Origin: Nitrospirota bacterium
GTDB taxonomy: Bacteria > Nitrospirota > UBA9217
Length of the DNA: 64,000 nucleotides
Direction of reading: 5' to 3'
Assembly: GCA_029858565.1 (NCBI GenBank)
Contig: JAOUEV010000005.1
Span: 32,001-96,000 of the forward strand
The notes below the pieces were generated by a model that saw only the letters and a program-made list of their open reading frames with translations, was not told the DNA's origin and searched no databases. The position numbers were made by a program, and so were the translations under genes. This document shows positions 4,464 through 60,724 of this stretch, piece by piece (within the stretch, counting starts at the first letter, position 1; every line of letters begins with the position of its first letter).

Positions 4464-4608
4464 GATTAAGGATTAATACGCCAAACAGGGATTACAGGAT
4501 CAGAGGATTATGAGAATACTTGTTCTGCCATATCCCCAGATCTTTTACCCCGCTAGTCCTTCCTTAGCGCCTTGATCCTTCCCTCCTCACAGTCCTTGCT
4601 CCTTCCCC
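4464..4608. repeat. Degenerate GGATTA-family tandem array with a TCCT-rich opposing arm
   Basis: gattaaggattaa..gggattacaggatcagaggatta (4464-4510), then repeated tcct units (4553-4608); related to 49611-49720. Confidence 0.5.
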
Positions 4609-4610
4609 AG

Positions 4611-5057
4611 TCAGAACGTCCCGGGGTCTTCCTTCGGCAATGTTTCCTCATCGAACGGGAGGACGCCCAGCTCGGTCATCAACTTCTCGAAATCCGACAT
4701 CAGCGACCGGTGGTCGATGTCGGAAAGATCATCGCTGAAGCTCCGCACGGTGAGACGGTCGAACAGGTCGTAATCGAAAATACCGGAGATCGCTTTGGTT
4801 CGGACCAGGGCCTGGTACACCATCCGATCGTCCTGCGCATCACGAGCGGAACGGAGGCCGATCTGCACGCGCCGCTCAGGCGATGCTGCGTACCACTCAA
4901 GCGCCGCACTCAGCGCGTCGGCAATTGCCGCGACGCCCGCGGCGATCTTTCCCTGGCGAAGCCGCCGGCGTCCGCCGCGGATATGGAGCCGGGCCCGAAG
5001 CAATGGCCCTTCCTCCGGCCCCATGGACCGCTCATGCATCAAACCTGCGTGGGGCAT
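4611..5057 (-). CDS. Conserved hypothetical protein
   Basis: ORF MPHAGLM..RARLHIRGGRRRLRQGK..LPKEDPGTF with a GAGGTGG RBS before ATG 5057. Confidence 0.7.
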   Translation of the reverse strand: MPHAGLMHERSMGPEEGPLLRARLHIRGGRRRLRQGKIAAGVAAIADALSAALEWYAASPERRVQIGLRSARDAQDDRMVYQALVRTKAISGIFDYDLFDRLTVRSFSDDLSDIDHRSLMSDFEKLMTELGVLPFDEETLPKEDPGTF

Positions 5058-5164
5058 GGTCACCACCTCTTCTCTTGTCAATTGCGGATAAGGTTTCCCT
5101 GATTTAGATTATAGCACCGGGGAACGGGAGAATGGGCGAGTAACAGGCGCGTTCTGGGGATGGT

Positions 5165-6445
5165 TCAGGGCGACCAGGCCGGCGAGGTATAGTTGGCGTC
5201 GTTCGGCGTCAAGCGTTCGATGTCCGTGCCGTCGGCGTTCATGATATAAATGCCGTACTTCCCGGACCGGTTGGAACTGAAGAGGATCTGCCTGCCTGAA
5301 GGGGACCACATGGGATTCTCGTCGCTGCCCGGACCGTCGGTGATGATGCGCATGTCCATGCCGTCGGGAGCGATCGTGGCGATCTTGAACTGCCCGCGCA
5401 CCTGCGATGCGAACACGATGCGGTCGCCGCGGGGCGACCAGTGGGGAGACGCGTTGTAGTTCCCGTCGAAGGTGATGCGGCGCACGTCGGAGCCATCCAC
5501 GCTCATGATATACAGCTGGGGCGTACCGCCCCTGCCCGAGGTGAACACGATCTCCCGTCCGTTGGGCGACCAGGCAGGCGAGACATTGTCCGCGATGCCG
5601 TAGGTGAGCCGCTCCAGATCGTTGCCGTCCCTGTTCAGGGTGTAGATCTCCGCTCCGCCGTCGCGGGACAGGGCGATGGCAAGCCGTTTGCCGTTCGGCG
5701 ACCAGGCAGGCGAGATGTTCAGCCCCTCGTGGCCCGAGATCTTCCAGCGCCGACCCGTCTCCATGTCCAGGCCGTACAGGTCCGGGTTCTTTTCCTTGTA
5801 GGAAACATAGGCCAGGATCTTGCCGTCGGGGCTCCATGCCGGGGACATGCAGATCGACCGGTCGGCGGTCAGCCGCTTGGGATTCAAGCCGTCGTAGTCC
5901 ATCACATAAAGTTCTTTGCGGCCGGTCTTGTCGGAAACAAAGGCGATGCGGGTCTTTGCGATCCCCCGTTCGCCGGTATATTGGGAAACGATCTCGTCTG
6001 CAAAGGTATGGGCCATGCGCCTGAGCAGTTCCCCGTTGCCGATGTACTCCCGGCTGGCCATGCGAAGGCCGGTTGCAGCGTCATAGAGCCTGCCGGTCAG
6101 CACAATATCTCCGCCCCGCCGCGACAGGCTTGCCCATGCCACACCCGACAGGCCAAAGGTCCCTCCGCGCTTGATCACCTCGGCAGGAGGCTCCTCCGCG
6201 GCGCTGTAGCGCAGGTCCAGCTTCTTCGGGTCCATGACATCGAAGATCTGGGAGCGCCTGAGGTCCGCCTGAAGCACATCACGTGCGAGCTTGCGCAGAT
6301 CCGGTGCCGAGAGGTCATCGAATACATCGAGCACCACGATGGGGATCTTCTTTGCCTCGCCCTTGATCACGCCAAGATAGAACTGGGCGGCTGCGGGAGC
6401 GGCAATGAGCAGAGACAGCAGTATGATTGAGAAAATGCGTTTCAT
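5165..6445 (-). CDS. tolB: Tol-Pal beta-propeller protein TolB
   Basis: Signal peptide, TolB_N region, repeated SPAWSP PD40 blades. Confidence 0.95.
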   Translation of the reverse strand: MKRIFSIILLSLLIAAPAAAQFYLGVIKGEAKKIPIVVLDVFDDLSAPDLRKLARDVLQADLRRSQIFDVMDPKKLDLRYSAAEEPPAEVIKRGGTFGLSGVAWASLSRRGGDIVLTGRLYDAATGLRMASREYIGNGELLRRMAHTFADEIVSQYTGERGIAKTRIAFVSDKTGRKELYVMDYDGLNPKRLTADRSICMSPAWSPDGKILAYVSYKEKNPDLYGLDMETGRRWKISGHEGLNISPAWSPNGKRLAIALSRDGGAEIYTLNRDGNDLERLTYGIADNVSPAWSPNGREIVFTSGRGGTPQLYIMSVDGSDVRRITFDGNYNASPHWSPRGDRIVFASQVRGQFKIATIAPDGMDMRIITDGPGSDENPMWSPSGRQILFSSNRSGKYGIYIMNADGTDIERLTPNDANYTSPAWSP

Positions 6446-6460
6446 GGAATCGTTCTTTTA

Positions 6461-6580
6461 TGACGTCGTAATGCAGTCATAGGGCAGTCGTACTGCGGTC
6501 ATGATGCAGTCATAAAGCCGCCAGACTGCTTCTCGACCGCCTTTCGACTGCTCTTAGCGACTGCCTCATGACTGTTTCTC
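6461..6580. repeat. Inverted pair of 11-bp-period tandem arrays (GCAGTC x5 / GACTGC x5)
   Basis: Cores at 6462, 6473, 6484, 6495, 6506; reverse-complement cores at 6524, 6535, 6546, 6559, 6570. Confidence 0.85.
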
Positions 6581-6582
6581 GC

Positions 6583-7317
6583 CTATTCCTGTTCCATCAG
6601 ATCCACGCTGAAGGTCTCCTGCTCCTTGAAGAATCCCTCGGGCAGCGGGGGAAATGGGCTGGACGAGAGAATGGCGCGCATGGCAGCCTGGTCGAAGTAG
6701 AAGTTGCCGCTCGACGTCATCAGCTTCGCGTCGCCCACCCGTCCCGAGCGCAGGACCGAGAACAGGACCGTAACCTTAGCGCCCTTGACCCCGGGAGGCG
6801 GTGTCCAGTTCCGCTCCACCTTGTCCCGCAGGATCGCTACATAGGGCGGGAACGGGAACGCCTGCCCGCCGCTTGCCACAGCCACGGATACCGCTTCCTG
6901 GCGCTTGCCTGTTCCTTCGGGAGCGGCTGCAGGCTTGTCATCGGCGGCCTCTTTTCGTTTTCCCGTTTCAAGGTCCGGCATGGCGCTCTTTGGCGCGGGA
7001 GCAGCCTTGGCAGGGCCTGTTTTGGCTTTCGAAGCACCCGGCTTTGTCCGGGAAACGCGGGGAGCCGGCTTCTTCGGCGCGGCAGCCGGCTCAACCGGTG
7101 CGGTCTGCGGTTGTGCCGACGGCGGCAGCGACGTGTCAGCGGGAAGGTCCACCAGGTTCACCCGGTAAAAAGGCGGAACAACGACCCGCTGCCTGATCTG
7201 CTGGGTAAGGAAGAAGGCTCCGAAAAAAAAGATGATATGGATGAAAAAAGAAAAGAAGACAGCCGCCGTGAGTTCGCTTCCGGACTGGCCGATCCTCTTG
7301 CCGGTGAGCAGCCTCAT
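6583..7317 (-). CDS. tolA: TolA/TonB C-terminal domain protein
   Basis: N-terminal TM helix with SxxxH, P/A/K-rich linker, TonB_C-like domain (VERNW..SSGNFYFDQAAMRAI..PFPPLP); lies between tolR and tolB. Confidence 0.8.
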   Translation of the reverse strand: MRLLTGKRIGQSGSELTAAVFFSFFIHIIFFFGAFFLTQQIRQRVVVPPFYRVNLVDLPADTSLPPSAQPQTAPVEPAAAPKKPAPRVSRTKPGASKAKTGPAKAAPAPKSAMPDLETGKRKEAADDKPAAAPEGTGKRQEAVSVAVASGGQAFPFPPYVAILRDKVERNWTPPPGVKGAKVTVLFSVLRSGRVGDAKLMTSSGNFYFDQAAMRAILSSSPFPPLPEGFFKEQETFSVDLMEQE

Positions 7318-8458: not shown

Positions 8459-8478
8459 GTGATACCTCCAAAGGATTC

Positions 8479-8590
8479 AGTGACAAGTGAGAGGAGACCG
8501 AGGAATCAGCGACAAGTGACGAGGGACAAGCGACAAGAAAAAGCGATCGCCTCTCCCTTGCTCGTCTCTGGTCACTCGTCGCTCGTCACG
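8479..8590. repeat. Inverted 7-bp tandem arrays (AGTGACA-like / CTCGTCA-like)
   Basis: agcgaca-agtgacg-agggaca-agcgaca (8508-8535) plus 8479-8499, versus ctcgtct-ctggtca-ctcgtcg-ctcgtca (8561-8588); the last unit contains the moeA stop codon. Confidence 0.8.
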
Positions 8591-11100: not shown

Positions 11101-11131
11101 TTTTCTCGATCTTCCATTTCGAATTCCCCAT

Positions 11132-23643: not shown

Positions 23644-24384
23644 CTACTTCTTGGGAGCGGCTTCCTTGCCCTTGGCGCCGGCCGCGGGAGCAGCTTCCTT
23701 GCCCTTGGCGCCGGCCGGTGCAGCAGCCGCTTCGCCTTCTTCCTTCTTCTTGCCCACAACCTCGGGCTCGCCGGTTTCAGCGGTAGGCGCGGCCGACAGC
23801 ATGGCCTCAAGCTTCTCTGCCGAGATCGGCGGCTGAATGGTCGCGACCGTGGCGTCTCCGTCGGTCAGGATGCGGACGCCCTCAGGGGCCTTGATGTCCC
23901 GCACGTGCAGCGACTCGTTCACCTTGAGGTTGGTGATATCAACATTGATGGAGTCCGGGATATTGGTCGGAAGGCACTCCACCTCGAGCTGGCGCTGACC
24001 GTACTGGAAGATGCCGCCTTCCTTCACGCCGATGGAATTGCCCGTGATATGCACAGCCACCTGGATCTTCACCTTTTCGTTCATGGCGACTTCCATGAGG
24101 TCAAGATGCATCAGCGCTCCGGAGAGCGGATCGAGCTGGTAGTCCTTGATCAGCGCCAGGCGCTCGCCTGCGCCGGCACCGCCCTCCAGTTTCAGGTTGA
24201 TCAGCGCATGTTCGCCGCCCTCCCTGTTCAACACCTTCGTCACGTCCTTGTTGACCATCGAGATGGGCAGGGACTTGCCGTGGCTGTAGAGGACCGCCGG
24301 GATCATCTTGTTCCTGCGCAAACCCCGGGCAACCCCTTTGCCCGCATTCTCTCTCACTTGTGCCGTCATAGCTACGCGTTCCAT
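23644..24384 (-). CDS. rplY: 50S ribosomal protein L25/Ctc
   Basis: GKGVARGLRR..IPAVLY, HLDL, GVKEGG; GGAGG RBS before ATG 24384. Confidence 0.95.
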   Translation of the reverse strand: MERVAMTAQVRENAGKGVARGLRRNKMIPAVLYSHGKSLPISMVNKDVTKVLNREGGEHALINLKLEGGAGAGERLALIKDYQLDPLSGALMHLDLMEVAMNEKVKIQVAVHITGNSIGVKEGGIFQYGQRQLEVECLPTNIPDSINVDITNLKVNESLHVRDIKAPEGVRILTDGDATVATIQPPISAEKLEAMLSAAPTAETGEPEVVGKKKEEGEAAAAPAGAKGKEAAPAAGAKGKEAAPKK

Positions 24385-24420
24385 TGCTTCCTCCATATAC
24401 CGTGGTAATTACCCTAAAAT

Positions 24421-24487
24421 GACCACTGATCAAGACAAATGAACACAGTTAAGATCAAACTGCCTTTATCTCTTCTTATCCGTGGTT
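24421..24487. repeat. Degenerate inverted 10-bp-period array
   Basis: gaccactgat-caagacaaat-gaacacag versus the reverse complement of the right arm, aaccacggat-aagaagagat-aaaggcag. Confidence 0.55.
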
Positions 24488-25497: not shown

Positions 25498-25571
25498 TGG
25501 TTCGGGGACAGGGAGTCGAACCCCGATTCAAGGCTTCAAAGGCCTCTGTCCTACCATTAGACGATCCCCGA
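25498..25571 (-). tRNA. tRNA-Gln(TTG)
   Basis: TCGGGGA acceptor stem, anticodon loop CTTTGAA, GGTTCGACTCC T-arm, encoded CCA; classic position between ispE and prs. Confidence 0.96.
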
Positions 25572-36904: not shown

Positions 36905-37053
36905 TCGCGCAAAGCCGCAAAGGCGCAAAGAAATTCTCCTATGAGGCGCCTAGGATACTTTTCTTCATTTGAATTGCCGGGACATTGGATGTTTTTTATC
37001 GTTTTGAACTTCGCTCGCGCCATTCTTTGCGGGCTTTGCGGCTTTGCGCGAGA
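36905..37053. repeat. MITE-like element with CGCAAAG-triplet inverted arms
   Basis: TCGCGCAAAGCCGCAAAGGCGCAAAGAA (36905-36932) versus TTCTTTGCGGGCTTTGCGGCTTTGCGCGA (37023-37051), with an AT-rich interior. Confidence 0.85.
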
Positions 37054-38650: not shown

Positions 38651-38739
38651 ATCTCGCGCAAAGCCGCAAAGGCCGCAAAGGAATTCACCGGTTATGAATT
38701 ACTTCGCCTTTCTTTGCGACTTCGCGTCTTTGCGAGAGA
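38651..38739. repeat. MITE-like element, same CGCAAAG family
   Basis: ATCTCGCGCAAAGCCGCAAAGGCCGCAAAG versus TTCTTTGCGACTTCGCGTCTTTGCGAGAGA. Confidence 0.85.
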
Positions 38740-43938: not shown

Positions 43939-43958
43939 AATCCGCATTCCGCAATCGG
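43939..43958. repeat. Single-arm 7-bp array (ATTCCGC family)
   Basis: aatccgc-attccgc-aatcgg immediately after the nuoK stop. Confidence 0.6.
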
Positions 43959-43959
43959 A

Positions 43960-44271
43960 TCACCATTTCAGCGTCGTAAGATTATCCGCATTGATGTCGC
44001 GGTACCGCTTGTAGATCGCCAGCAGCAGCGCCAGGGCTATCGCCGCCTCGGCAGCCGCCAGCACGATCACGAACATCGAGACCATCTGTCCTTCCAGGTT
44101 GCGCGCGGTCAGCCTGCTGAAGGCCGCGAAGTTCAGGGCAGCGGAGTTCAGGATCAGCTCGATGCCCAGGAAGATGCCGATGATGCTCTTCTTCGAGACC
44201 ACGGTCAGGAGACCGGCAAGGAACAGGATCAGGCTGATGATGATATAGCTTGTAATGCCGGTCAGTTCCAT
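43960..44271 (-). CDS. nuoK: Complex I subunit K
   Basis: GIELILN, GQ..FVIVLAAAEAAIALA; start MELT at 44271. Confidence 0.93.
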   Translation of the reverse strand: MELTGITSYIIISLILFLAGLLTVVSKKSIIGIFLGIELILNSAALNFAAFSRLTARNLEGQMVSMFVIVLAAAEAAIALALLLAIYKRYRDINADNLTTLKW

Positions 44272-44795: not shown

Positions 44796-44801
44796 CAACT
44801 C

Positions 44802-44829
44802 TTCCTTCTTAATTCTTACTTCGTACTTA
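44802..44829. repeat. Single-arm 7-bp array (TTACTTC-like)
   Basis: ttccttc-ttaattc-ttacttc-gtactta spanning the nuoI stop and nuoJ RBS. Confidence 0.5.
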
Positions 44830-46400: not shown

Positions 46401-46428
46401 CTTACCCCTTACGTCTTACGTTTCACGA
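46401..46428. repeat. Single-arm 7-bp array (CTTACGT family)
   Basis: cttaccc-cttacgt-cttacgt-ttcacga between nuoD and nuoH. Confidence 0.65.
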
Positions 46429-46429: not shown

Positions 46430-47554
46430 TTATCTATCTATTTCCGGAGCCACCACGTCCAGGCTGCCGATGATCGCCACCAGGTCCGCCACCATGACAC
46501 CCTGGCTGATATGCTCGATGATTGTCATGGACGAGAACGAGCCGGTCCTGATCTTGATCCGGAAGGGATTCTTCTTTCCGTCGCTGATGACGTAGAACCC
46601 CAGTTCGCCCCGGGGACACTCGGTCCGGACGTAGATCTCGCCCGCCGGCACCGTGAAAAGCTTCGGCAGTTTTGTCCTGATCTCGCCGTCCTGAGGCAGC
46701 CGGTCCAGGGCCTGGCGGATGATCCTGCAGGACTGGACAACCTCCTCGATCCGGATGAAGTACCGGTCGTAACTGTCCCCGAGCGTCCCGTATTTCCCTC
46801 TGCCGACCGGGATGTCGAAATCAAAGCGGTCGTAGATCGAATAGGATTCGTCCTTCCGGAGGTCGAAGGCGACGCCGGAAGCGCGCAGGTTCGGTCCGGT
46901 CAGGGTGTAGTCGTTCGCTGTTTCCGCGGAAATGACGCCGACATTCGCCAGCCGGTTGATCAGGATGGTGTTGAAGGAGATCAGCTCATTGAACTCCTCC
47001 ACGAACTCGTATTCAAGATGATCGACAAAGGCCCGGCACTTTTCCGCGAATCCCGGCGGCAGGTCCTGGGCCACGCCGCCGATGCGCACGTAGTTGTGCG
47101 TCAGCCGCGCTCCGCAGAGCATTTCGATCAAATCGTTGAAGGTCTCCCGTTCCCGCAGCGCGTGCACAAAGGGCGTGACCGCGCCCAGGTCCAACAGCAG
47201 CGCGCCGAAGCCGATGAAATGGCTCGCGATGCGCGAAAGCTCCGCCGCGATCACGCGCAGATACTCTGCCTTTTCCGGGACCGCGACCCCTGCCAGCCGC
47301 TCCACCGCCACGGCATACCCCAGGTTGCAGTTGACCGACGCCACGTAATCGATGCGGTCCGTGTAGGGCATGAACCCCTGCCAGGTGACCCGCTCGGCGA
47401 TCTTCTCGATGCCCCGGTGCAGGAACCCGATATCCGGGGTTGCCTTCACCATCATTTCGCCGTCGGTCTGGAGGATGAAGCGCAGCACGCCGTGCGTGCT
47501 CGGATGGTGGGGCCCCATGTTCAGGACCATTTCCTGGGTAGAGTATTTGGACAT
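46430..47554 (-). CDS. nuoD: Complex I subunit D
   Basis: LNMGPHHPSTHGVLR, GFLHRGIEK, DRIDY, PRGELG, EIDR; no NiFe CxxC motifs. Confidence 0.95.
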   Translation of the reverse strand: MSKYSTQEMVLNMGPHHPSTHGVLRFILQTDGEMMVKATPDIGFLHRGIEKIAERVTWQGFMPYTDRIDYVASVNCNLGYAVAVERLAGVAVPEKAEYLRVIAAELSRIASHFIGFGALLLDLGAVTPFVHALRERETFNDLIEMLCGARLTHNYVRIGGVAQDLPPGFAEKCRAFVDHLEYEFVEEFNELISFNTILINRLANVGVISAETANDYTLTGPNLRASGVAFDLRKDESYSIYDRFDFDIPVGRGKYGTLGDSYDRYFIRIEEVVQSCRIIRQALDRLPQDGEIRTKLPKLFTVPAGEIYVRTECPRGELGFYVISDGKKNPFRIKIRTGSFSSMTIIEHISQGVMVADLVAIIGSLDVVAPEIDR

Positions 47555-47555: not shown

Positions 47556-48137
47556 TTATTTCGGATTTCGGATTGCGGATTTCGGATTTAAAGTCGTTAT
47601 ATGTTCGATTGTTTCACTCACGCCGCATTCCGCATTCGACAACCCGCAATCGAGAAGGTCTTCACGGGCAGTTTCAATACCGTTGTAGCTCGTCGGATAC
47701 ACGTAATCCTTCCGGAGCGGATAGCCCTCCCAATCCTCCGGCAGCAGCAGCCGCTTCATATTGGAATGGCCGGTAAACCGGATGCCGAGCAGGTCAAAGG
47801 TCTCGCGCTCGTACCAGCCGATGCCGGGGAACGCCCGCTCCAGGCTCGGAATTTCCGGCTGCTTCCGGTCGAGAAAAACCCTGACCGTGATCTTCGCCCT
47901 ATGGACCTGCGAGTAAAGATTGTAGATCACCGCCATCCGGTCGCCGTAATCCACGCCAAGATGGTTCATGAGCGTCGAGAAACCGAGCGCCGGGTCGTTC
48001 TTGAGCGTTCCGAGGGACGCAATGAAATCCTTCAGGTCCAGAACAACCATCAGGTCGTTGTTCTTCATGGCCTCCATCGACCGGACGGACGCGCCAAGCT
48101 TCGCTGAGATCAGGTTTTGCAGCTTCTCCTGCGCCAT
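47556..48137 (-). CDS. nuoC: Complex I subunit C with repeat-derived C-terminal tail
   Basis: GVDY, WYERETFDLLGIRFTGH, LLPEDWEGYPLRKDY; start MAQE at 48137. Confidence 0.93.
   Translation of the reverse strand: MAQEKLQNLISAKLGASVRSMEAMKNNDLMVVLDLKDFIASLGTLKNDPALGFSTLMNHLGVDYGDRMAVIYNLYSQVHRAKITVRVFLDRKQPEIPSLERAFPGIGWYERETFDLLGIRFTGHSNMKRLLLPEDWEGYPLRKDYVYPTSYNGIETAREDLLDCGLSNAECGVSETIEHITTLNPKSAIRNPK
47558..47652. repeat. Inverted 7-bp tandem arrays (ATTTCGG / CCGCATT) inside the nuoC 3' end
   Basis: atttcgg-atttcgg-attgcgg-atttcgg (47558-47585) versus ccgcatt-ccgcatt-cgacaac-ccgcaat (47623-47650). Confidence 0.85.
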
Positions 48138-48139
48138 GT

Positions 48140-48643
48140 TCAAGCTTCCTTTTTGAGGAAGTACCTCTCCTTCTTGATCTTTTCCTGCACTTTCATCAGC
48201 GCCTCGGTCAACGCCTCGGGCCTCGGCGGGCACCCGGGCAAATACACGTCCACGGGCAGGATCTTGTCCACGCCGCGCACCACCGAATAACTCAGGTCAA
48301 AGGGGCCGCCGCAGTTCGCGCAGCTGCCCATGGCGATCACGTACTTGGGCTCGGCCATCTGCTCGTACAGACGGCGGAGCCGCGGGGCCATCTTGAGCGT
48401 CACCGTGCCCGCCACGATCATGAGATCCGACTGACGCGGCGTTGCCCGGAACAGGGACCCGAAACGGTCGATGTCCGCCCGGGGACCGCCGGTCTGCATC
48501 AGCTCGATGGAGCAGCAGGCAAGGCCCATGAGGAGATACCAGAGCGAGTTCGCCCGGGCAAGGTTCACGGCCTGGTCGATCGTGGTCAGGACCGGCTCGG
48601 AATCGCCGGGCAGCCGGTTCACGATGTTGAAACGCTCAAGCAT
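48140..48643 (-). CDS. nuoB: Complex I subunit B
   Basis: [33 protein letters not shown]. Confidence 0.95.
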
Positions 48644-49172: not shown

Positions 49173-49379
49173 GGGATTGATCCCCTGAGAGCACAGGCAA
49201 ATCAGGATTTTCCAGACCCCTTTTCTGCAACGTTACCATAGAACGGCGTTCCGGAGAAATTTATTATTTTAATGTGAAAATTAGATTGTCCTCAGGAAAA
49301 AGAGGCGTGTGAAAAAAAGTAACGCGACAGCGGGACAGTGGCGAGCTCTCTTACCCATGGCGGGGCAAAGCGAGTTCGC

Positions 49380-49598
49380 TCATTTGCAGCCCGCGCAGGA
49401 CGATGATGAGCATCCGCTGCATCCCGAGGAACTTCCTGAGGAAGGGTCTCCCGAACCCTTCCCCAGACCGAACTTCGAGAGCCGCTTCTGTGTTTCTTTT
49501 GAACCGCAGAAAGGACACTCGACCACGGGATTCGAGCCGAAGACCAGTTTCTCGAAGCATTTGCCGCAGGCAGCGCATTGATATTCGTAGATAGGCAT
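49380..49598 (-). CDS. FmdB-family zinc-ribbon protein
   Basis: MPIYEYQCAACGKCFE..CPFCGS; Cys-rich tail. Confidence 0.88.
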   Translation of the reverse strand: MPIYEYQCAACGKCFEKLVFGSNPVVECPFCGSKETQKRLSKFGLGKGSGDPSSGSSSGCSGCSSSSCAGCK

Positions 49599-49610
49599 GA
49601 CACCAAGAGC

Positions 49611-49720
49611 AGGATTAATGAACACAGAGAAGGATCACAGGGTTAAGGATTAAACAGGGCCCAATCTCTACGCCCCCTCATCTCCGACCTTTAATCCTCT
49701 AATCCTTGTTCACTTAATCC
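49611..49720. repeat. Inverted GGATTAA-family arrays
   Basis: aggattaatgaacac..aggatcacagggttaaggattaa versus ttaatcctctaatccttgttcacttaatcc. Confidence 0.7.
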
Positions 49721-49730
49721 ACCTACTCCT

Positions 49731-50375: not shown

Positions 50376-50438
50376 GGTTTATTCGTTCTCCTCTAATATA
50401 GTTCTTGGCCTTACACCTCTTGTATCACGATTACTTTC

Positions 50439-51734
50439 TTAATTTCTCACCTTCTCAATTTCTCGGTCTTCCGCACTTTGCACTCCGCACTCCGCACTTC
50501 GAAGCGCAGCTTCGATGACCTGCACCGTATGCATGACCGCAACTTCCGCTCCTTCCAGCCTCAGACTGTCGGCGATCTGCATCCTGCAGCCGGGACAGCC
50601 GGTAAGCACGGTCGCGGCGCCCGTGGCGATGATGTCGCGGGCCTTTGATCTTCCTATGCCGCGGGACAGGGCCGGATGAACCGCTCGCATCAGGCCGCCG
50701 AACCCGCAGCACTGATCAGGACGATCCATTTCCACCAGCATCACGCCGGGGATGCGCCGAACGACGCTCCGCGCCGTCTTTGCCAGACCCTGTCCCCGCC
50801 CCAGATGGCAGGGGTCATGCCAGGTAATGCGGCCGTGCAGAGGGGTGCTCAGGTCGCTGGCTGCTAGCTTGTCCGCAAGGAACTCGTGGATGTCCATCAC
50901 CGCAGCCGGCCTGATCCCCGACCGCGAGAGCAGTTCGGGATAGTCACGCTTGAACGTCATACCGCAGGACGCGCAGGCCGTGACAACAGCTTCGGCATCG
51001 AGCGCAGCCAGCACGCGGGTATTCTGTTCCGCCAGATTCCTGGCACCATCCCGATCGCCCAGGGACAGGAACGGTCTTCCGCAGCATTTCAGATCGTCAG
51101 GGATGACAACATGGTAACCGAGGTGTTCAAGCACAGCCGCCGTGGACTGTTGAATATCCTGTTGAAAGTGTCTGATCGCGCACCCGGGATAAAAAATGAC
51201 TTTTTTCCTCGCGGCAACCTGTTGACCGCTTCCATTCCGCATTCCGTAGTCCGCATTCCGAATCTTCCTGCTACCCTGCCCCGCGCCGCCACCTGCCACG
51301 GATCCCTTGCTGAAATGGAGCGCCACCGGCGCAAGCCACGAAAGGGAGCGCATTACCGCCTCATGCCGGAGCGCGCCAGCCAGCACCGACTGAACAATTC
51401 CGGCGCCGGACTCCTGGACAGCCTGTTCTTTGGCCGCCAGAATGATGCTCGTCACCGGCACCCCGCTCGCGCACTGTCCTTCGCATGCCATGCACCCGGC
51501 GCACGTGGCAAGACGGTCCTGGTACAGGTCCGACACCGCCAGTCGCCCGTCCAGGACTGCCTCGATCAAGGCGATGCGGCCGCGCGGCGACTGAGACTCC
51601 CGCCGGTCCTGCCGGAAGCTTGGGCAAACCGCGCTGCAGGCCCCGCATTTCACGCACCGGGAAATATCCTTCCGATAATTTTCTAAGGGATTTTGATGAG
51701 TTCTCTTCCGCACTTCGCACTCCGCACTTCGCAC
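50439..51734 (-). CDS. GlcF-like Fe-S oxidoreductase (2x[4Fe-4S] + two CCG domains)
   Basis: CVKCGACSAVCP, SPRGR, CAGCMACEGQC, CCG, HDPCHL, CCGFGG, CPGC. Start is GTG 51734 or 51713, both inside a repeat. Confidence 0.85.
   Translation of the reverse strand: MRSAECEVRKRTHQNPLENYRKDISRCVKCGACSAVCPSFRQDRRESQSPRGRIALIEAVLDGRLAVSDLYQDRLATCAGCMACEGQCASGVPVTSIILAAKEQAVQESGAGIVQSVLAGALRHEAVMRSLSWLAPVALHFSKGSVAGGGAGQGSRKIRNADYGMRNGSGQQVAARKKVIFYPGCAIRHFQQDIQQSTAAVLEHLGYHVVIPDDLKCCGRPFLSLGDRDGARNLAEQNTRVLAALDAEAVVTACASCGMTFKRDYPELLSRSGIRPAAVMDIHEFLADKLAASDLSTPLHGRITWHDPCHLGRGQGLAKTARSVVRRIPGVMLVEMDRPDQCCGFGGLMRAVHPALSRGIGRSKARDIIATGAATVLTGCPGCRMQIADSLRLEGAEVAVMHTVQVIEAALRSAECGVQSAEDREIEKVRN
50469..50503. 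repeat. 7-bp array (CTCCGCA) inside glcF-like 3' end
   Basis: ttccgca-ctttgca-ctccgca-ctccgca-cttcgaa. Confidence 0.75.
51234..51264. repeat. 7-bp array (ATTCCGC) inside glcF-like linker
   Basis: attccgc-attccgt-agtccgc-attccga. Confidence 0.75.
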
Positions 51735-51735
51735 T
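51706..51735. repeat. 7-bp array (CTTCGCA/CTCCGCA) at glcF-like 5' end
   Basis: ttccgca-cttcgca-ctccgca-cttcgca. Confidence 0.78.
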
Positions 51736-54892: not shown

Positions 54893-54989
54893 TTTATATA
54901 AAGCAGACAGCGGGCGCAGAAGCCTGATCTTCGCGGTGTTCTGGCATGAACTTTCTCGTCCATGTGATCGTCCCTGCTCCTGCGGTTCG

Positions 54990-55877: not shown

Positions 55878-55886
55878 GGAAAGGAC

Positions 55887-55915
55887 ATTATAGGACGTGT
55901 ATCAGGGCAAGTCAA
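55887..55915 (-). promoter_or_regulatory. Putative sigma70 promoter giving a near-leaderless lipid kinase mRNA
   Basis: TTGACT-17 bp-TATAAT ending 9 nt before the ATG; no SD. Confidence 0.55.
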
Positions 55916-55939
55916 ACAGGAGAGCGATGGAGCGGAGGT

Positions 55940-57076: not shown

Positions 57077-57124
57077 GGGATCGCTCCGGAGTGATCCGCT
57101 GAATGAAAAGGATCTGGGTGGACC

Positions 57125-58495
57125 TCACCCAACCACATTATACTCCCGCACGCGATACTTGGCGCCGAGCTCTTCCGCGATCCTGCGGCAGGCTTCGATG
57201 TCCACTTCCGGCGCTGAAACGACCGTGGCGGTGACATCGGGAATATACTTGGTCGCTTCCTTGATGAATTCCTTCACCGCGTCATAGGTCTGCGGTCCGA
57301 ACTTGGGCTGGGAGAGCCTTGCGTAGACCTCGGCATTCTGGCCGTTCAGGCTGACGCTCACCGCGTCCACAAGGCCCTGAAGCTCCGGCAGGATATTCCG
57401 TTTGTGGATCAGGTTGCCATGGCCGTTCGTGTCGATCCGGACCTTGCCGCCCTTCTTCTTCACTTCCGCGGCAACCGCCTTGATCACCTCGATCCGCAGG
57501 GTCGGCTCCCCGTACCCGCAGAACACGATCTCGTCATACCTCTTCGGATCGCCGATCTCCTTGATGAGATCATCTGCGGTCGGCTCCTCGGCAAGCCGGA
57601 GATTGTGACCTTTCACATAATCGGTGAAGTAGCGCACGCAGAACGTGCATGCCGAAGTGCAGCGGTTCGTGACATTGAGGTACAGCGAGTTCCTGATGGG
57701 ATAGGTGATCTTGCCTTTTTTCGGGACATCTCCGATGCCGAAAAGCTGCATGGCATTGAAGCTCGTGATCCGCGCCACGTCATCGAAGGATAATCCCTTT
57801 GCCTTCGCGATCTCTTCGGCCGTGAACCGGACATAGGCGGGCTCGTTCCGTTTTCCGCGGTATGCCTGGGGAGCGAGATAGGGAGCATCGGTCTCGATCA
57901 GCATCTGCTCGATCGGCACCTGCTTCACCACGTCCCGCAAAACCTGGGCCTTGGGAAAGGTGACCGGCCCGGCAATGGAAATGTAAAATCCCAGGTCCAT
58001 GAGCTGCCGGGCATACTCGATGTCCCCGGAAAAACAGTGCATGATCCCGCCGAGCACCGGGTCCCAGGCCTCTTTCAGGATCCTGAGCGTATCCTCGTGA
58101 GCATCCCGGTCGTGGACAATTATCGGCAGCTGCAGTTCTCGGGCCTCGTGCAGCATGTCCCGGAACTTGCGCTGCTGCACCGACCGCTGGGTGTGTTCGT
58201 AGTAGTAATCCAGGCCGATCTCGCCGTAGGCGACCACCTTCTTGTGCTTCGCGAAATGGCGGATGACCTCATAGGCGGGATGGAGGATGTCCTTGGCCTC
58301 GTGGGGATGGATGCCCACGGCCGCGTACACGCAGTCGTGTTTCTCAGCAAGCAGCACCGCGTCGCGGCTTGATTCGACCGTAGTGCCGATGGTGATGATA
58401 TAGTCAACGCCCGCTTCTTTTGCGCGCTTGATCACCTCGTCGCGGTCTTCGTTGAACTCGCGCATTTCGAGATGCGCGTGGGTGTCGATGAGCAC
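57125..58495 (-). CDS. tatD: TatD hydrolase fused to TatD-associated radical SAM domain
   Basis: IDTHAHL, GIHPH, GEIGLDY, HCFSG, ETDAPYL; then YLNVTNRCTSACTFC (CxxxCxxC), FCGYGEP, DTNG. Confidence 0.9.
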   Translation of the reverse strand: MLIDTHAHLEMREFNEDRDEVIKRAKEAGVDYIITIGTTVESSRDAVLLAEKHDCVYAAVGIHPHEAKDILHPAYEVIRHFAKHKKVVAYGEIGLDYYYEHTQRSVQQRKFRDMLHEARELQLPIIVHDRDAHEDTLRILKEAWDPVLGGIMHCFSGDIEYARQLMDLGFYISIAGPVTFPKAQVLRDVVKQVPIEQMLIETDAPYLAPQAYRGKRNEPAYVRFTAEEIAKAKGLSFDDVARITSFNAMQLFGIGDVPKKGKITYPIRNSLYLNVTNRCTSACTFCVRYFTDYVKGHNLRLAEEPTADDLIKEIGDPKRYDEIVFCGYGEPTLRIEVIKAVAAEVKKKGGKVRIDTNGHGNLIHKRNILPELQGLVDAVSVSLNGQNAEVYARLSQPKFGPQTYDAVKEFIKEATKYIPDVTATVVSAPEVDIEACRRIAEELGAKYRVREYNVVG

Positions 58496-58511
58496 TTTTC
58501 AAACCTCGTGG

Positions 58512-58586
58512 AACGTGATAGGTGAGACGTGAAACGGAAAACGTGAAGGATATCCATCCCTCACGTCTCACGTCTTACGTCTCACG
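58512..58586. repeat. Inverted 7-bp tandem arrays (GACGTGA / TCACGTC)
   Basis: aacgtga-taggtga-gacgtga-aacggaa-aacgtga versus tcacgtc-tcacgtc-ttacgtc-tcacg. Confidence 0.85.
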
Positions 58587-58597
58587 GGGAGCTATGT

Positions 58598-60604
58598 TTA
58601 TTTCACTTTCGCGCCCGGCGCGATCTCCTTGTCCGGCGTCACCACGGAAAGGATCTCACCGCTGCTCGCGGCCAGAAGCATGCCCTGGGACTCGACGCCC
58701 ATGAGCTTGGCGGGCTTCAGGTTCGCAACGATCACGATCTGCTTGTCCAGGAGTTGCTCGGGCGCGTAGTGTTTGCCGATGCCGGCCACGACCTGCCGCA
58801 CCTCGGTGCCGATGTCCACCTTGAGCTTCACAAGCTTGTCCGATTTTTCCACCCGCTCTGCCTGCACGATCTTCCCGACCCGGAGCTGGACCTTGGCGAA
58901 GTCCTCGATGCCGATAAGGTCTGTTCCCGCTGCAGCGGGTTTATCCGCTGGTTTCTGTTCTTCCGGCTTTGTTTCCATTTTCTTTCCTTCTTTTTTCGTT
59001 TTATCAGCGTTGATCATGGTCGATCCGCGTCCTGTGTCCTTTTTTGTATCGATCCTCGGGAAGAGCTGGCCCCCGGGACAGATCGCCGTCCCTGCCTGGA
59101 TCAATCCCCAGGACAGCTCATCTTCGAGCAGGGATGCGGAGATCTGCTTATCCATGCCGATACAATTCCAAATGCTCTGGCTCGTTCCCGGCATGACCGG
59201 ATAGAGATGGAGTGCGACCAAACGGAGCGCTTCGGCAAGATTGTACATCACCGTTGCAAGGCGGCCCATATCATTCTTTTTTGCCAGGGTCCAGGGTGCG
59301 TTCTCCTCCACGTACCGGTTCGCCCGGGTCACAAGCTGCCAGACGCTATGGAGATATTTGTTGAACGCAAGCTGGTTAAGATCGGCTTCCACCGCTGCAG
59401 GAATGGCGCAAGCCGTCTCCCGCAGTTCGCGGTCCGTCTGATGTTCATCCCGCGCGGCCGGCACCTTGCCGTCGAAATATTTGCTCACCATGGTCAGGAC
59501 GCGCGACAAGAGGTTCCCGAGATCGTTCGCCAATTCGGTGTTGAACCGAGTAACAAAGGTCTCGGTCGAATAATCGCCGTCCAGGCCAAAGGGCACTTCA
59601 CGCAGTACGAAAAATCGGAACGCATCCGGACCGTAGGTATCCACCACCTCGTTCGGATCGATCACGTTGCCGATGGACTTGGACATCTTTTTTCCGTCGC
59701 GTGTCCACCAGCCGTGGGCAAAGATGTTCCTCGGCAGCGGCAGCTCCAGCGCCATGAGCATGGTGGACCAGTACACGCTGTGGGTGGTCAGGATGTCCTT
59801 GCCCACGAGGTGATGGTCGGCCGGCCACCAGAAGGATTCCCGCGTCTTCGGGTCCGTGGAGCCCTTTGCCGCGGGGCTCAGATACCGCGTTGCCGAATAA
59901 TAATTCGTCAGCGCATCGAACCAGACGTAGGTCACAAAGTCCCGGTCAAAGGGGAGCTCAATGCCCCAGGCAAGCCGCGCTTTCGGCCGCGAGATGCAAA
60001 GGTCGCCGAGCTTGTGGGTCGTAAGGAATCCCAGCACCTCGTTCCGGCGCGATTCCGGCCTGATGAACGTCGGATCATCGGTGATGTGCCTGATCAGCCG
60101 GTCCTGGTATTTGCTCATCAGGAAGAAGTAGTTATCCTCCTGGATCTGCTCCACCTGCCTGCCGCAATCCGGGCACTTGCCGTCGACAATATCCTTCTCG
60201 GTCCAGAACCGCTCGTCGGGCGTGCAGTACCACCCCTCGTAGGTGCGGCGCTCGATCTCGCCCTTGTCAAAGAGCTTCTGCAGGAACTCCTGCACGACCG
60301 CGATATGCTCCTTGTCCGTAGTGCGGATAAAAGCGTCGTTCGTGATCTCGAGCTTTTCCCAGAGCTTCCGGAAATTGACCGAGAGCAGGTCCGCGTGCTC
60401 CTTCGGCGTCCGTCCGCGCTCGTGGGCCGCTTTTTCCACCTTCTGCCCGTGCTCGTCAGTGCCGGTCAGGAAAAAGACCGGATCGCCCTTGAGGCGGTGG
60501 TAGCGGGCCAGGACATCGGCCGCGATCGTGGTATACGCATGGCCGATGTGCGGCACATCGTTCACGTAGTAGATCGGTGTGGTTATGTAGAATTTCTTCT
60601 GCAT
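58598..60604 (-). CDS. metG: Methionine--tRNA ligase with C-terminal tRNA-binding domain
   Basis: TTPIYYVN, HIGH, GTDEHG, YVWFDAL, KMSKS; C-terminal NLKPAKLMGVESQGM. Start MQKKFY at 60604. Confidence 0.96.
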   Translation of the reverse strand: MQKKFYITTPIYYVNDVPHIGHAYTTIAADVLARYHRLKGDPVFFLTGTDEHGQKVEKAAHERGRTPKEHADLLSVNFRKLWEKLEITNDAFIRTTDKEHIAVVQEFLQKLFDKGEIERRTYEGWYCTPDERFWTEKDIVDGKCPDCGRQVEQIQEDNYFFLMSKYQDRLIRHITDDPTFIRPESRRNEVLGFLTTHKLGDLCISRPKARLAWGIELPFDRDFVTYVWFDALTNYYSATRYLSPAAKGSTDPKTRESFWWPADHHLVGKDILTTHSVYWSTMLMALELPLPRNIFAHGWWTRDGKKMSKSIGNVIDPNEVVDTYGPDAFRFFVLREVPFGLDGDYSTETFVTRFNTELANDLGNLLSRVLTMVSKYFDGKVPAARDEHQTDRELRETACAIPAAVEADLNQLAFNKYLHSVWQLVTRANRYVEENAPWTLAKKNDMGRLATVMYNLAEALRLVALHLYPVMPGTSQSIWNCIGMDKQISASLLEDELSWGLIQAGTAICPGGQLFPRIDTKKDTGRGSTMINADKTKKEGKKMETKPEEQKPADKPAAAGTDLIGIEDFAKVQLRVGKIVQAERVEKSDKLVKLKVDIGTEVRQVVAGIGKHYAPEQLLDKQIVIVANLKPAKLMGVESQGMLLAASSGEILSVVTPDKEIAPGAKVK
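59003..59032. repeat. 10-bp-period array inside the metG linker
   Basis: atcagcgttg-atcatggtcg-atccgcgtcc. Confidence 0.5.
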
Positions 60605-60649
60605 CTGGTCGTTAAAATCTGCTTCAAGTTTCCCCGTAAAAAAAATCAT

Positions 60650-60724
60650 TCCCACACAACGCCGCGAAGATCACAGAGAAATCCCCAAATTTTGTTCTTC
60701 GTGACTTCGTGTCTTCGTGTGAGA
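60650..60724. repeat. Inverted CACGAAG-triplet element (variant of the CGCAAAG family)
   Basis: tcccacacaacgccgcgaagatcacagagaa versus ttcttcgtgacttcgtgtcttcgtgtgaga. Confidence 0.7.

Follow-up and report, generated by a model that had tools for sequence, protein, structure and literature searches.

The intervening sequence (IVS) in the 23S rRNA of Coxiella burnetii contains an ORF for a four-helix-bundle protein, and passages of its description report a 28-bp terminal stem that RNase III cuts in vitro and a 5′ arm of three to four tandem GACAGAT heptamers, the number of which varies between strains (PMC4990558). Paired tandem repeats in Geobacter metallireducens have been proposed by Aklujkar et al. 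(2009, PMC2700814) to be DNA sites bound by a multimeric protein or a global regulator such as IHF/HU, and Rehm et al. (2015, PMC4692102) describe an excess of heptamers in bacteria and G-quadruplex (G4)-forming GGGNATC repeats between co-oriented ORFs. We found no paper in the literature that links such arms to the small genes they enclose. Here we analysed a window of 64,000 nt from a Nitrospirota bacterium (contig JAOUEV010000005.1, positions 32,001 to 96,000) together with its whole genome and its relatives. The tandem arrays at the gene junctions of this window are probably the terminal arms of gene cassettes that are small, palindromic and similar in build to ORF-bearing 23S rRNA IVSs, and the C. 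burnetii IVS shares with these cassettes the tandem heptamers in the 5′ arm, the terminal stem and the four-helix-bundle ORF. A full cassette would consist of one small gene, encoding a GxxExxY PD-(D/E)XK nuclease-like or an IVS-type four-helix-bundle protein, within two inverted arms, each made of 3–5 tandem units of 7–11 nt.

Arrays in the window

A preliminary description had listed about 17 arrays of 3–5 short units, and TRF on the window together with direct reading of the sequence supported 15–16 of the 17: two-armed copies starting at 4464, 6461, 8479, 24421, 36905, 38651, 47558, 49611, 58512 and 60650, and one-armed copies starting at 43939 (two units only), 44802, 46401, 50469, 51234 and 51706. 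The site at 59003 was rejected, being a weak period-11 low-complexity stretch within metG (TRF score 32), and of two weaker traces the one near 50410 proved to be a genuine 8-mer array at 50435–50464, whereas the one near 11111 was unsupported. Ten copies had been called hairpin-forming; six of them fold far better than shuffled sequence, with none of 200 shuffles per copy matching (z −6.3 at 6461, −3.6 at 8479, −3.7 at 36905, −4.2 at 38651, −4.1 at 49611 and −6.6 at 58512), whereas those at 4464 and 47558 (both z −0.4), 60650 (z −1.25) and 24421 (z −1.7) are degenerate, and these 4 of 10 hairpins that fold no better than shuffles count against the cassette reading. Every copy in the window is an arm-only hairpin or a one-armed array and none bears a gene. 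In line with the absence of a catalyst gene noted earlier, a search of the whole contig for GxxExxY, four-helix-bundle and Y1-transposase genes found none.

All elements lie on the minus strand except that at 36905. The element at 4461..4610 (direct reading), with degenerate arms of AAGGATTA/GGATTA-type units, sits between two unnamed genes (4611–5081 to 2477–4453); its arm type brackets a four-helix-bundle gene at C123:4340, and of the relatives, G001 and G002 carry CACGGAGA-type hairpins at this junction, while G017 has a bare spacer of 34 nt. The tolA–tolB element (6461..6575; GCAGTC-N5, TRF period 11/22) folds at −54 kcal/mol; its arm type also brackets a truncated four-helix-bundle gene at C47:36026, the family is present at the same junction in G001, and G015 has a 31-nt spacer there. 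The GACGAGN heptamer element between moeA and tolQ (8479..8590, TRF) overlaps the moeA stop codon with its first unit; G003 has an orthologous copy with another loop, G015 and G002 lack the element, and this arm type brackets a four-helix-bundle gene at C7:9221. The names given to the junctions at 6461 (TolA/TolB), 8479 (MoeA/TolQ) and 58512 (MetG/TatD) were correct, and the nuo genes near 47558 match those of relatives.

The plus-strand CGCAAAGN element 3′ of yoaA (36905..37049, TRF) has three units per arm, TCGCG...CGCGA ends and an unrelated loop of 98 nt, and is one of 26 CGCAAAG copies in the genome; CGCAAAGN arms bracket a GxxExxY gene at C142:57080, and the junction is without the element in G003 (53 nt) and G001 (overlapping genes). 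A second CGCAAAGN element (38651..38738, TRF) has a short loop, and G002 (65 nt) and G015 (13 nt) lack it. The nuoC–nuoD element (47558..47650, TRF) has a GCGGAAT 5′ arm and a TCGGATT-complement 3′ arm that pair poorly, and the nuoC frame (ORF 47556–48233) reads through it and ends 1 nt before the nuoD ATG; G002 and G015 have 25-nt spacers without the element. Both CGCAAAG copies and the nuoC–nuoD copy are recent gains, absent from every relative compared. A AAGGATTA-type element lies 3′ of the transaldolase gene (49611..49724), where G002 has a CACGGAGG-type hairpin instead. The CACGAAGN element (60650..60722; right arm by TRF, left arm decayed) has GxxExxY-type arms, like those around a GxxExxY gene at C100:32807, and lies at the ricT-like–metG junction, where G003, G002, G001 and G017 hold other arm families. 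A decayed small hairpin at 24419..24485 (direct reading), matched in folding by 11 of 200 shuffles, has ACCACGGAT...ATCAGTGGT ends that resemble the arms at C58:12095 and C115:27786 and are tentatively a GxxExxY-type terminus.

Among the one-armed arrays, that at nuoK–nuoL (43939..43962, direct reading) has only two units, GCGGAAT/GCGGATT, and is below the TRF threshold. Between nuoI and nuoJ, AGTAAGA-type heptamers cover the nuoI stop codon (44800..44828, TRF 4.1 copies) and are absent in G002 and G015. CGTAAGA-type heptamers directly follow the nuoD stop codon (46401..46428, direct reading) and their last unit supplies the AAGGAG ribosome-binding site of nuoH; this junction is a 5-nt spacer in G015 and 102 nt of other sequence in G002. 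A glcF-like gene has at its 3′ end two adjoining arrays, AGTGCGG ×4 and then TGAGAAAT-type ×4 in the sense strand (50435..50498, TRF), which are translated as a C-terminal tail, and purine-rich arrays occur there in 6 of 7 genomes compared by eye, all but G007. A GCGGAAT-type heptamer array (51233..51260, TRF) lies in frame where the glcF-like protein has a variable linker, and tblastn alignments show this linker to be hypervariable in relatives. Four AGTGCGR units (51707..51735, TRF score 58) follow the upstream gene at a distance of 4 nt from its stop codon; G003 and G014 have this same unit at the position, G001 and G012 have GTCAGGA-type arrays, and G017 and G007 have no array. Presence/absence polymorphism was seen at every window junction compared.

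Excess, placement and polarity in the genome

Intergenic DNA makes up 495,120 nt of the whole genome and contains 167 arrays of period 7, compared with a mean of 1.2 (maximum 3) in 10 dinucleotide shuffles, and 120 of period 8, compared with a mean of 1.6 (maximum 5), an enrichment of about 100-fold for both periods. Gene positions for the genome-wide counts came from a crude in-house caller, which placed 132 arrays inside genes, at least some of these being in false antisense ORFs. Spacers between co-directional genes carry 0.89 arrays per kb, convergent ones 0.34 and divergent ones 0.26, and tRNA-operon spacers are filled by hairpins of the same kind. The cassettes occupy tRNA-operon spacers and the very short gaps that separate genes of one orientation. 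An inverted partner lies within 250 nt of 200 of the 526 arrays and a direct partner of 31; left arms are purine-rich in 91/107 cases and right arms pyrimidine-rich in 79/92. One-armed 7-mers had been said always to show their purine-rich strand in the mRNA, which holds for 6/6 in the window, whereas genome-wide (117 purine-rich, 56 pyrimidine-rich, 14 neutral) it is a bias of about 2:1 and not a rule.

Genes between the arms

All seven GxxExxY genes (TIGR04256) in the genome are bracketed by inverted tandem-unit arms, and so are all five four-helix-bundle (23S-IVS-type) genes that are complete or nearly so and match TIGR02436 strongly, so that the association of arms with these two gene types, put forward in the preliminary description, holds in this genome. 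Cargo orientation is always that of the host operon (12/12 genes co-oriented with their neighbours). The window arm families AAGGATTA, GCAGTC-N5, GACGAGN, GCGGAGT, CGCAAAG, CACGAAG and CACGGAT have filled counterparts elsewhere in the genome, and CGTGAGA is the only one without. Of 80 GxxExxY loci drawn from a wide range of phyla and from two archaea, 54 carry at least two C-R-C-R-R-A-R words upstream and at least two complements downstream, 9 have the reverse polarity, and a C-R-C-R-R-A-G unit is shared across phyla. The window units are therefore only partly unrelated, as CGCAAAG (36905, 38651) and CACGAAG (60650) belong to this family, and the decayed ACCACGGAT ends at 24421 may tentatively be added to it.

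Moreover, two cargo lineages that cut across genera carry CACAGAG or CACGGAG arms, respectively, with amino acid identities of 0.86–0.98 within the first, 0.75–0.82 within the second and 0.71–0.76 between them. Arms and cargo travel as one unit. The cargo is functional, because dN/dS was 0.02–0.07 in the 6 pairs with measurable dS, which indicates strong purifying selection. No cargo remnant was recognisable in the loops of 143 two-armed elements (best tblastn E-value 0.31), and among the 26 CGCAAAG copies the arms are nearly identical whereas the loops have no sequence or length in common (42–118 nt). Because loops are unalike and hold no remnants, a single master element is not the source of most gene-less copies, and these did not arise either by recent deletion from the cassettes that this genome has at present.

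Decay at one orthologous junction

One junction compared across 17 related genomes is filled in 7; G014 retains the arms, the last codons of the gene as a 3′ remnant and a nested hairpin, G043 has an arm-only hairpin, remnants of the right arm persist in G051 and G039, the alleles of G036 and G007 are empty (2 and 21 nt), and 4 genomes hold other sequence. Genus g8 alone contains filled, arm-only and empty alleles. This series directly displays the empty or decayed footprints that had been suspected: cassettes decay in place, losing the gene and then an arm, and arm-only hairpins and one-armed arrays are leftovers of this decay. One-armed arrays, the majority (326/526), could have a separate origin.

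The metG–tatD hairpin and other explanations

The CGTGAGA element between metG and tatD (58507..58586, TRF; −41.2 kcal/mol) has orthologous hairpins with compensatory changes in G044, G003, G017, G004 and G031, and is kept across five genera. Its arms pair in 85% of cells compared with 33–58% with slid partners, double-change cells number 15 compared with 2–8, and the covariation score was reached by 0/500 shuffles. By eye, an array or hairpin is present in 24 of 28 genomes. This hairpin is old and structurally conserved, and it lends some plausibility to the alternative of a structure-based RNA element, perhaps a second aspect of the cassette itself. A stricter form of that alternative, in which host RNA elements (intercistronic processing or stability hairpins, or translation coupling) arose in place by slippage and were kept by selection, the small genes being later insertions into loops, is unlikely. 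It would account for the long-conserved metG–tatD position with its covariation, for a one-armed ATTGCGG array that 8 genomes from 6 genera have 4–7 nt past the stop codon (by eye), for tRNA spacers filled exactly by hairpins, for the nuoH ribosome-binding site and for loops free of cargo remnants. However, the arms in G014 enclose the last codons of the gene, so that gene loss made the short form there; arms co-segregate with cargo lineage, and GxxExxY arms form one family across phyla, an outcome not expected of slippage in place. No trace of selection on the sense RNA was seen in stability (50 elements are more stable in sense, 43 in antisense) or in G-U pairs (309 vs 289), and essential junctions in close relatives manage without the element.

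It is likewise improbable that the arrays are DNA sites to which a multimeric protein of the chromosome or a global regulator such as IHF/HU binds, with the small genes as unrelated neighbours or as the binders. Multimeric binders typically recognise tandem units set in inverted pairs with variable spacing, as argued by Aklujkar et al. (2009, PMC2700814), and conserved arms with free loops in the CGCAAAG family and a unit common to GxxExxY loci across phyla would be expected if a protein reads the unit. Against this, density is lowest at promoters (divergent spacers), one genome holds 213 different canonical units, arrays also lie within coding linkers and tRNA spacers, close relatives have unrelated units at one junction, and compensatory arm changes preserve pairing rather than sequence. 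That these are mutually unlinked, slippage-prone simple repeats or G4 heptamers, as Rehm et al. (2015, PMC4692102) and the AAGGGGT family (17 arrays, potentially forming G-tracts) might suggest, is already disfavoured as very improbable, since most units, in contrast to the G4-forming heptamers, lack a G-run (GCGGAGT, CGCAAAG, GACGAGA, AAGGATTA), inverted pairing with fixed polarity would be unexpected, and every cargo gene is bracketed by arms.

A model for the cassettes

The reading as footprints of a junction-targeting cassette is supported overall, and its mechanism of movement is at present conjectural: neither a target-site duplication at the elements nor a catalyst of movement was found, and several elements are old, long-fixed parts of the genome and not mobile DNA. 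We infer both movement and a role at the RNA level. The element would be co-transcribed with the operon, and its purine-rich 5′ arm would pair with the pyrimidine-rich 3′ arm and loop out the insert, so that the stop codon upstream and the start codon downstream, or else two tRNAs, become neighbours again. By analogy with the C. burnetii IVS, the stem may be an RNase III substrate, and looping out together with stem cutting would let an essential operon tolerate the insertion. Selection against exposed C-rich, Rho-loading RNA would best explain the purine-first polarity and the 2:1 bias of single arms towards purines in mRNA; RNase III and Rho are both encoded in the genome. The cassette reading would tie the unexplained heptamer repeats of bacteria to rRNA intervening sequences.

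Tandem arrays in the window and in the genome

The preliminary description had listed 17 sites with short tandem arrays at gene junctions of the window, and by TRF and direct reading 15 of them are arrays of 2–6 units of 7–11 nt; the site at 59003 proved to be a weak low-complexity stretch within metG. The fainter trace at 50410 is a genuine 8-mer array, that at 11111 was unconvincing, and the flanking gene names (TolA/TolB, MoeA/TolQ, MetG/TatD and the nuo genes) were as given there. Ten copies had been described as two-armed, that is, as inverted pairs of arrays able to form a hairpin; six of these fold far beyond shuffled sequences (z −3.6 to −6.6, 0 of 200 shuffles as good), and the remaining four are degenerate (z −0.4 to −1.7). 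Rfam gave no match at any element, and its sole match in the window was the tRNA at 25501–25571. Two tandem repeats of the window are unrelated coding repeats: a 33-nt unit present twice at 23653–23727 (TRF score 123) in the gene at 23644–24396, and a 12/24-nt CTG-rich repeat at 61009–61123 in the C-terminal part of a RicT-like gene, which in relatives is a long Gln/Lys-rich tail.

The window belongs to contig C85 of a genome (G000) of 3.9 Mb in 144 contigs. Arrays of at least 2.8 copies were counted genome-wide with our own crude gene caller (87% coding) and compared with ten dinucleotide-preserving shuffles. The anticipated enrichment over shuffled DNA is large: the 495 kb of intergenic sequence hold 167 period-7 arrays against a shuffle mean of 1.2, and 120 period-8 arrays against 1.6, and periods 9, 10 and 11 are likewise above chance (20, 9 and 6 against 0.9, 0.5 and 0.1). 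The genome has 526 arrays of period 7–11 in 213 canonical units, the commonest being GCGGATT (49 arrays), GCGGAGT (48) and CCGCATT (28), with CGCAAAG-type 8-mers also among them. Arrays were densest in co-directional spacers (0.89 per kb), followed by convergent (0.34) and divergent ones (0.26), and 279 of 2667 co-directional junctions carry an array, including those of nuo, tol and aminoacyl-tRNA synthetase operons. These junction classes, and the 132 arrays called inside genes, are approximate because the caller is crude; moreover, some of the 132 sit in false antisense ORFs, and therefore the intergenic share is understated. One false antisense ORF, 3.6 kb long, is on the plus strand of contig C126 (67853–71446) over several minus-strand genes and four repeat elements; it illustrates how frames fuse where arrays are free of stops and G+C is high.

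Architecture, polarity and folding of the arms

An inverted partner was found within 250 nt for 200 of the 526 arrays, and a direct partner for 31. Of 107 left arms across the genome, 91 are purine-rich, and 79 of the 92 right arms are pyrimidine-rich, so the purine-rich arm comes first on either strand. The claim that all one-armed 7-mer arrays show a purine-rich strand in the mRNA holds within the window, but genome-wide it is reduced to a 2:1 bias, since single arms between co-oriented genes are purine-rich on the mRNA strand in 117 cases and pyrimidine-rich in 56. After merging, there were 143 two-armed elements with a median length of 87 nt, and the mean MFE of 108 genomic ones was −39 kcal/mol. 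Sense and antisense strands did not differ in stability (Wilcoxon p 0.47; sense better in 50 elements, antisense in 43) or in G-U pairs (309 and 289); because both fold equally well, there is no sign of selection specifically on the sense RNA. A check for concerted evolution found units only slightly more alike within arms than between them (identity 0.83 and 0.81; p 0.011, 56 pairs).

In the 26 two-armed copies of the CGCAAAG family the arms are near-identical, consisting of TCTCGCGCAAAGCCGCAAAGNCGCAAAG and its complement, and the loops are unrelated in sequence and length (42–118 nt, 42% G+C). Complementarity stops ∼9 nt inside the arms, and a purine-to-pyrimidine gradient continues through the loop (0.70, 0.54, 0.28). 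The loops are not decayed unit arrays, as they lack a period-8 signal (lag-8 match 0.243). Cargo remnants were also not found in loops: a tblastn search of 12 cargo proteins against the 143 two-armed elements gave 12 matches at E ≤ 10, the best at 0.31.

Small genes between inverted arms

Pairs of arrays with long gaps led to two ORFs scoring 139 and 136 bits against TIGR04256, the GxxExxY protein model. The genome holds seven GxxExxY genes (135–150 bits, cut-off 35), in which a D...E-x-K nuclease motif is invariant in five aligned copies (D63, E73, K75), and five strong four-helix-bundle genes of the 23S rRNA intervening-sequence (IVS) type (TIGR02436; 52.8–134.7 bits, cut-off 24); three further TIGR02436 matches are weak and lie inside larger frames. 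None of these genes is in the window. The preliminary description had put forward a link between such arms and both gene types, and indeed all 12 genes are bracketed by inverted arms of tandem units. The arms of all seven GxxExxY genes have units CACAGAG, CACGGAT, CGCAAAG, CGCAGAG or CACGAAG at a period of 8–10, and those of the four-helix-bundle genes have AAGGATTA, GACGAGA, AATTAAG, GCGGAGT/GCGAAGT or GCAGTC-N5. All arm families of the window except CGTGAGA occur on filled cassettes elsewhere in the genome, and the window elements at 36905, 38651 and 60650 carry GxxExxY-type arms (C-R-C-R-R-A-G, 8–10 nt period). The cargo is oriented as its neighbours in 12 of 12 cases, with both neighbours called for nine and one for three. 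Arms and cargo form one unit, and the cargo is co-oriented with its operon.

We then assembled 80 GxxExxY loci from Bacteroidota, Planctomycetota, Acidobacteriota, Chloroflexota, Proteobacteria, Patescibacteria and two archaea. At least two C-R-C-R-R-A-R words within 200 nt upstream together with at least two complements downstream were present at 54 of the 80 loci, and the reverse polarity at 9. A stricter test, requiring an exact tandem 6-mer upstream and its complement in tandem downstream, gave 26 of 80, against 6.4 for mis-paired flanks, a control that is inflated because different loci share one unit, and 9 for the direct orientation. Many loci that failed the word test hold, by eye, close variants such as CACTGAG and CGCCGAG. 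Thus, the GxxExxY arms are one conserved family rather than arbitrary repeats.

Filled, decayed and empty alleles among relatives

The junction of the GxxExxY gene at position 9750 of contig C142 could be compared in 17 genomes with both flanks (G-numbers other than G000 denote related genomes). Seven are filled, in three genera (G000 and G001; G012, G037, G044 and G050; G049). In G014 the two arms survive together with the final codons of the gene (...KDGIRRLVL*) and enclose another hairpin, the 63-nt spacer of G043 is an arm-only hairpin, G051 and G039 have right-arm remnants, and G036 and G007 are empty (21 and 2 nt). A different family occupies the site in G009, and other sequence lies there in G017, G018 and G040. 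The genus g8 alone holds filled, arm-only and empty forms. The suggestion that the elements are empty or decayed footprints with filled alleles elsewhere is therefore borne out at this junction by filled, gene-remnant, arm-only, one-arm and empty forms, which shows cassettes decaying in situ into arm-only and one-arm forms. Two lineages of cargo can be distinguished: that of G000, G012, G037 and G050 has CACAGAG arms, and that of G001, G044 and G049 has CACGGAG arms; protein identity is 0.86–0.98 within the first, 0.75–0.82 within the second and 0.71–0.76 between them, and the split crosses genus boundaries. A dN/dS of 0.02–0.07 in the six pairs with measurable dS shows that the cargo is under purifying selection. 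At locus L126 of G044, a junction homologous to C142:9683–10162, the left arm and ∼40 nt of inner sequence form four tandem modules of ∼60 nt, a higher-order repeat of the GxxExxY cassette arm.

The four-helix-bundle junction on contig C7 has a 14-nt TGAnnATG spacer in close relatives, a 537-nt cassette in G000 and a cassette with different (AAGGGTN) arms in G035; seven loci with flank identity of 54–60% on one or both sides were set aside as probably paralogous, and the sequence of G003 reads N here.

Polymorphism among relatives, which had also been proposed, was evident at the nuo, tal and glcF-like junctions, where elements were gained or lost among congeners and sister genera. The nuoC–nuoD element is missing in G002 and G015 (25-nt spacers), nuoJ–nuoK is empty in the window (11 nt) and filled in both of these genomes, and two hairpins at nuoB–nuoC occur in G015 only. 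After the transaldolase gene, the window has a AAGGATTA hairpin and G002 a CACGGAGG hairpin. The two CGCAAAG elements of the window are missing in every relative having that junction, and the elements at 8479 and 6461 have same-family orthologues in G003 and G001. Most element-bearing junctions have an empty allele of 2–34 nt in some relative, the shortest relative being chosen per junction; for comparison, 39% of array-free spacers are 25 nt or shorter. Because the TTAA flanking the C142 cassette is itself within a palindrome, a target-site duplication is unrecognisable there, and at other junctions a few native bases were lost on insertion.

Several reading frames of the window touch these elements. 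The nuoC frame (47556–48233) spans the whole element at 47558, which adds ∼35 residues, and stops 1 nt before the nuoD start codon (47552–47554); this ATG has no Shine-Dalgarno sequence, and in relatives lacking the element a GGGGAAGGG-type site occupies this position. At 50439–51734, a heptamer array encodes one seven-residue repeat in all three frames, so that SAECGVR-like peptides from the arrays at 51707 and 50470 stand at both ends of an apparent glcF-like ORF, which has a further in-frame array within a variable linker (51233–51260); ORF calling is inflated by arrays of this kind. G002 shares with the window a small zinc-ribbon ORF (MPIYEYQCAACG...; 49292–49606, flanked by the transaldolase gene and nuoA), which lies directly downstream of the hairpin in both genomes.

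A conserved hairpin between metG and tatD

Of 30 loci taken from the family, two lacked one flank, which left the metG–tatD spacer to be read in 28 genomes. By eye, an array or hairpin lies a few bases past the stop codon in 24 of the 28, with at least six unit families across genomes, the family of each arm likewise being assigned by eye. A one-armed ATTGCGG-type array occupies the same position in eight genomes of six genera, and a CCGTRAG...CTYACGG hairpin in a spacer of 92–106 nt is common to six genomes of five genera. In the alignment of these six, 85% of cells pair, compared with 33–58% with slid partners, and both sides changed in 15 cells, compared with 2–8. The covariation score was reached by none of 500 shuffles; the number of pairs with a double change, eight, was equalled by 51 of 500 shuffles and is less decisive. 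This pairing and covariation show that some hairpins are conserved with compensatory change, and therefore that some elements are ancient, their pairing being kept while the unit sequence drifts.

tRNA operons, the 23S gene and candidate catalysts

All copies of the element are in mRNA or tRNA-operon spacers, and none is in helix 25 or 45 of 23S rRNA. The seven-gene tRNA operon at C14:127864–129268 (locus L162, 365–1768; Pro, Arg, His, Arg, Arg, Lys, Leu) has spacers filled by GCGGATT/GCGGAGT heptamer hairpins and single arms, and its long Arg–His spacer also contains a duplicated 3′ part of the preceding tRNA. No ORF-bearing 23S IVS was found in the genome; the 23S gene is 3001 nt long against a 2925-position model, which leaves no room for one.

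G000 also has 12 Y1-transposase-like genes (C88:30641–31591, C123:5877–6851, C72:1699–2556 and nine others), most of 280–330 residues with a conserved C-terminal extension. As catalysts they can be dismissed, since arrays of period 7–11 come within 1.5 kb of only three of the 12 and bracket none of them; in the transposase search, which covered the Y1 family, no catalyst is evident.

Comparison with known systems

The observation of dispersed arrays at gene junctions is confirmed and its interpretation as cassette footprints supported: the elements are arms of IVS-like cassettes, with gene-less derivatives in mRNA and tRNA operons. The closest parallel is the IVS of Coxiella burnetii. Warrier et al. 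(2016, PMC4990558) describe a four-helix-bundle (‘S23p’) ORF enclosed by terminal inverted repeats, which pair into a long stem; three to four tandem GACAGAT heptamers, in strain-variable number, lie in the 5′ arm, RNase III cleaves the 28-bp terminal stem in vitro where the first repeat begins, and the IVS is viewed as selfish and of unknown origin. Our cassettes share with it the four-helix-bundle ORF, the inverted arms forming a stem and the tandem heptamers in the arm. However, they lie at mRNA operon junctions and in tRNA spacers, not in helix 45 or 25, and they include a second cargo type (GxxExxY) and hundreds of gene-less copies.

Aklujkar et al. (2009, PMC2700814) describe classes 1–3 of Geobacter metallireducens as dozens of paired repeats, each of 3–5 tandem 8-, 9- or 7-mers, whose members lie on opposite strands a variable distance apart in spacers like that of proB–proA, and interpret them as putative binding sites of a global regulator (IHF/HU on DNA). 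Reverse-complemented, their class 2 consensus TCTCCGTS gives SACGGAGA, which is the CACGGAGA unit found in our GxxExxY arms, and class 3, MTYCTGA, is the complement of GTCAGGA-type arrays in G001 and G012; their text draws no link to cargo genes or IVS (PMC2700814). Our 143 two-armed elements fit the paired-repeat layout as described there, the likeness being one of layout and consensus, descent aside. In the literature searched, largely outside subscription journals and supplements, no paper tied such arms to GxxExxY or four-helix-bundle cargo, and matches for ‘GxxExxY’ within this incomplete coverage came from unrelated contexts only.

MITEs have the terminal repeats of a gene-bearing element but no gene, and they outnumber that element many-fold; our gene-less copies likewise have the arms of a gene-bearing element and are far more numerous. 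However, no internal sequence is common to the copies of an arm family (the 26 CGCAAAG loops are unrelated, and the 143 elements are without cargo remnant), which argues against MITEs, and, in contrast to MITEs, we know of no transposase for these elements. REP/BIME elements are short imperfect palindromes present by the hundreds at operon junctions, directly past stop codons; they are co-transcribed and affect mRNA stability and upstream translation, and the associated RAYT proteins are Y1 transposases. The present elements resemble them as hundreds of junction palindromes after stop codons, probably co-transcribed, and differ in that the arms are tandem units of many unrelated families with cargo-filled forms. 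Membership in REP/RAYT is rejected because no Y1 gene is flanked by arrays.

Cyanobacterial STRR are dispersed heptamer repeats; like these, and like the GGGNATC and TAACTGA heptamers, many of our arrays have 7-nt units in about four copies and are intergenic, probably transcribed and phylogenetically patchy. A preference for co-oriented ORFs and for the vicinity of start and stop codons is common to them as well. The abstracts on GGGNATC repeats in Xanthomonas and Nostoc (PMC4692102) and on TAACTGA repeats in Beggiatoaceae (PMC4679880), however, present direct repeats, read as G-quadruplexes or sites of RNA-binding proteins, and mention neither an inverted partner arm nor a cargo gene. A G-quadruplex does not suit the main units here (GCGGAGT, GCGGATT, CGCAAAG, GACGAGA), which have no run of three G.

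Possible mechanism and implications

Within the operon transcript the two arms would base-pair, and the insert would be looped out, so that stop and start codons, or neighbouring tRNAs, would be brought together again. The paired arms would be a substrate of RNase III, as is the C. burnetii IVS stem in vitro; the genome has genes for RNase III (rnc) and for Rho. We suggest that a C-rich arm that emerges first, or alone, may be an exposed Rho loading site inside the operon; if so, this would explain both why the purine-rich arm comes first and why single arms show a 2:1 bias.

We consider it unlikely, although worth stating, that the arms are also the cognate recognition sites of the cargo, which would make the cassettes a new kind of homing element. 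The predicted GxxExxY nuclease would then act on arm DNA, as would, for the heptamer families, the four-helix-bundle protein with a putative partner. Break repair from other copies would keep dispersed arms alike while loops drift, and would occasionally copy the gene into an arm-only hairpin that lies elsewhere in the genome or in a different species. The RNA hairpin would render the element harmless in essential and stable-RNA operons, and the classical IVS of 23S rRNA would be a special instance, one inserted in an rRNA gene.

Read as IVS-like cassettes, the elements would bring three matters into one testable system: the heptamer and octamer repeat excess of many bacterial genomes, the role of the GxxExxY and 23S-IVS four-helix-bundle proteins, two very large families whose members are tiny, and the origin of rRNA intervening sequences. 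The four-helix-bundle proteins are relatives of the DGR accessory protein Avd.

As arms of IVS-like cassettes and their gene-less derivatives, the elements account for spurious ORF extensions and false antisense ORFs in annotation. Moreover, because about one in ten co-directional junctions carries one, they must bear on the cutting, stability and translation of polycistronic RNA.
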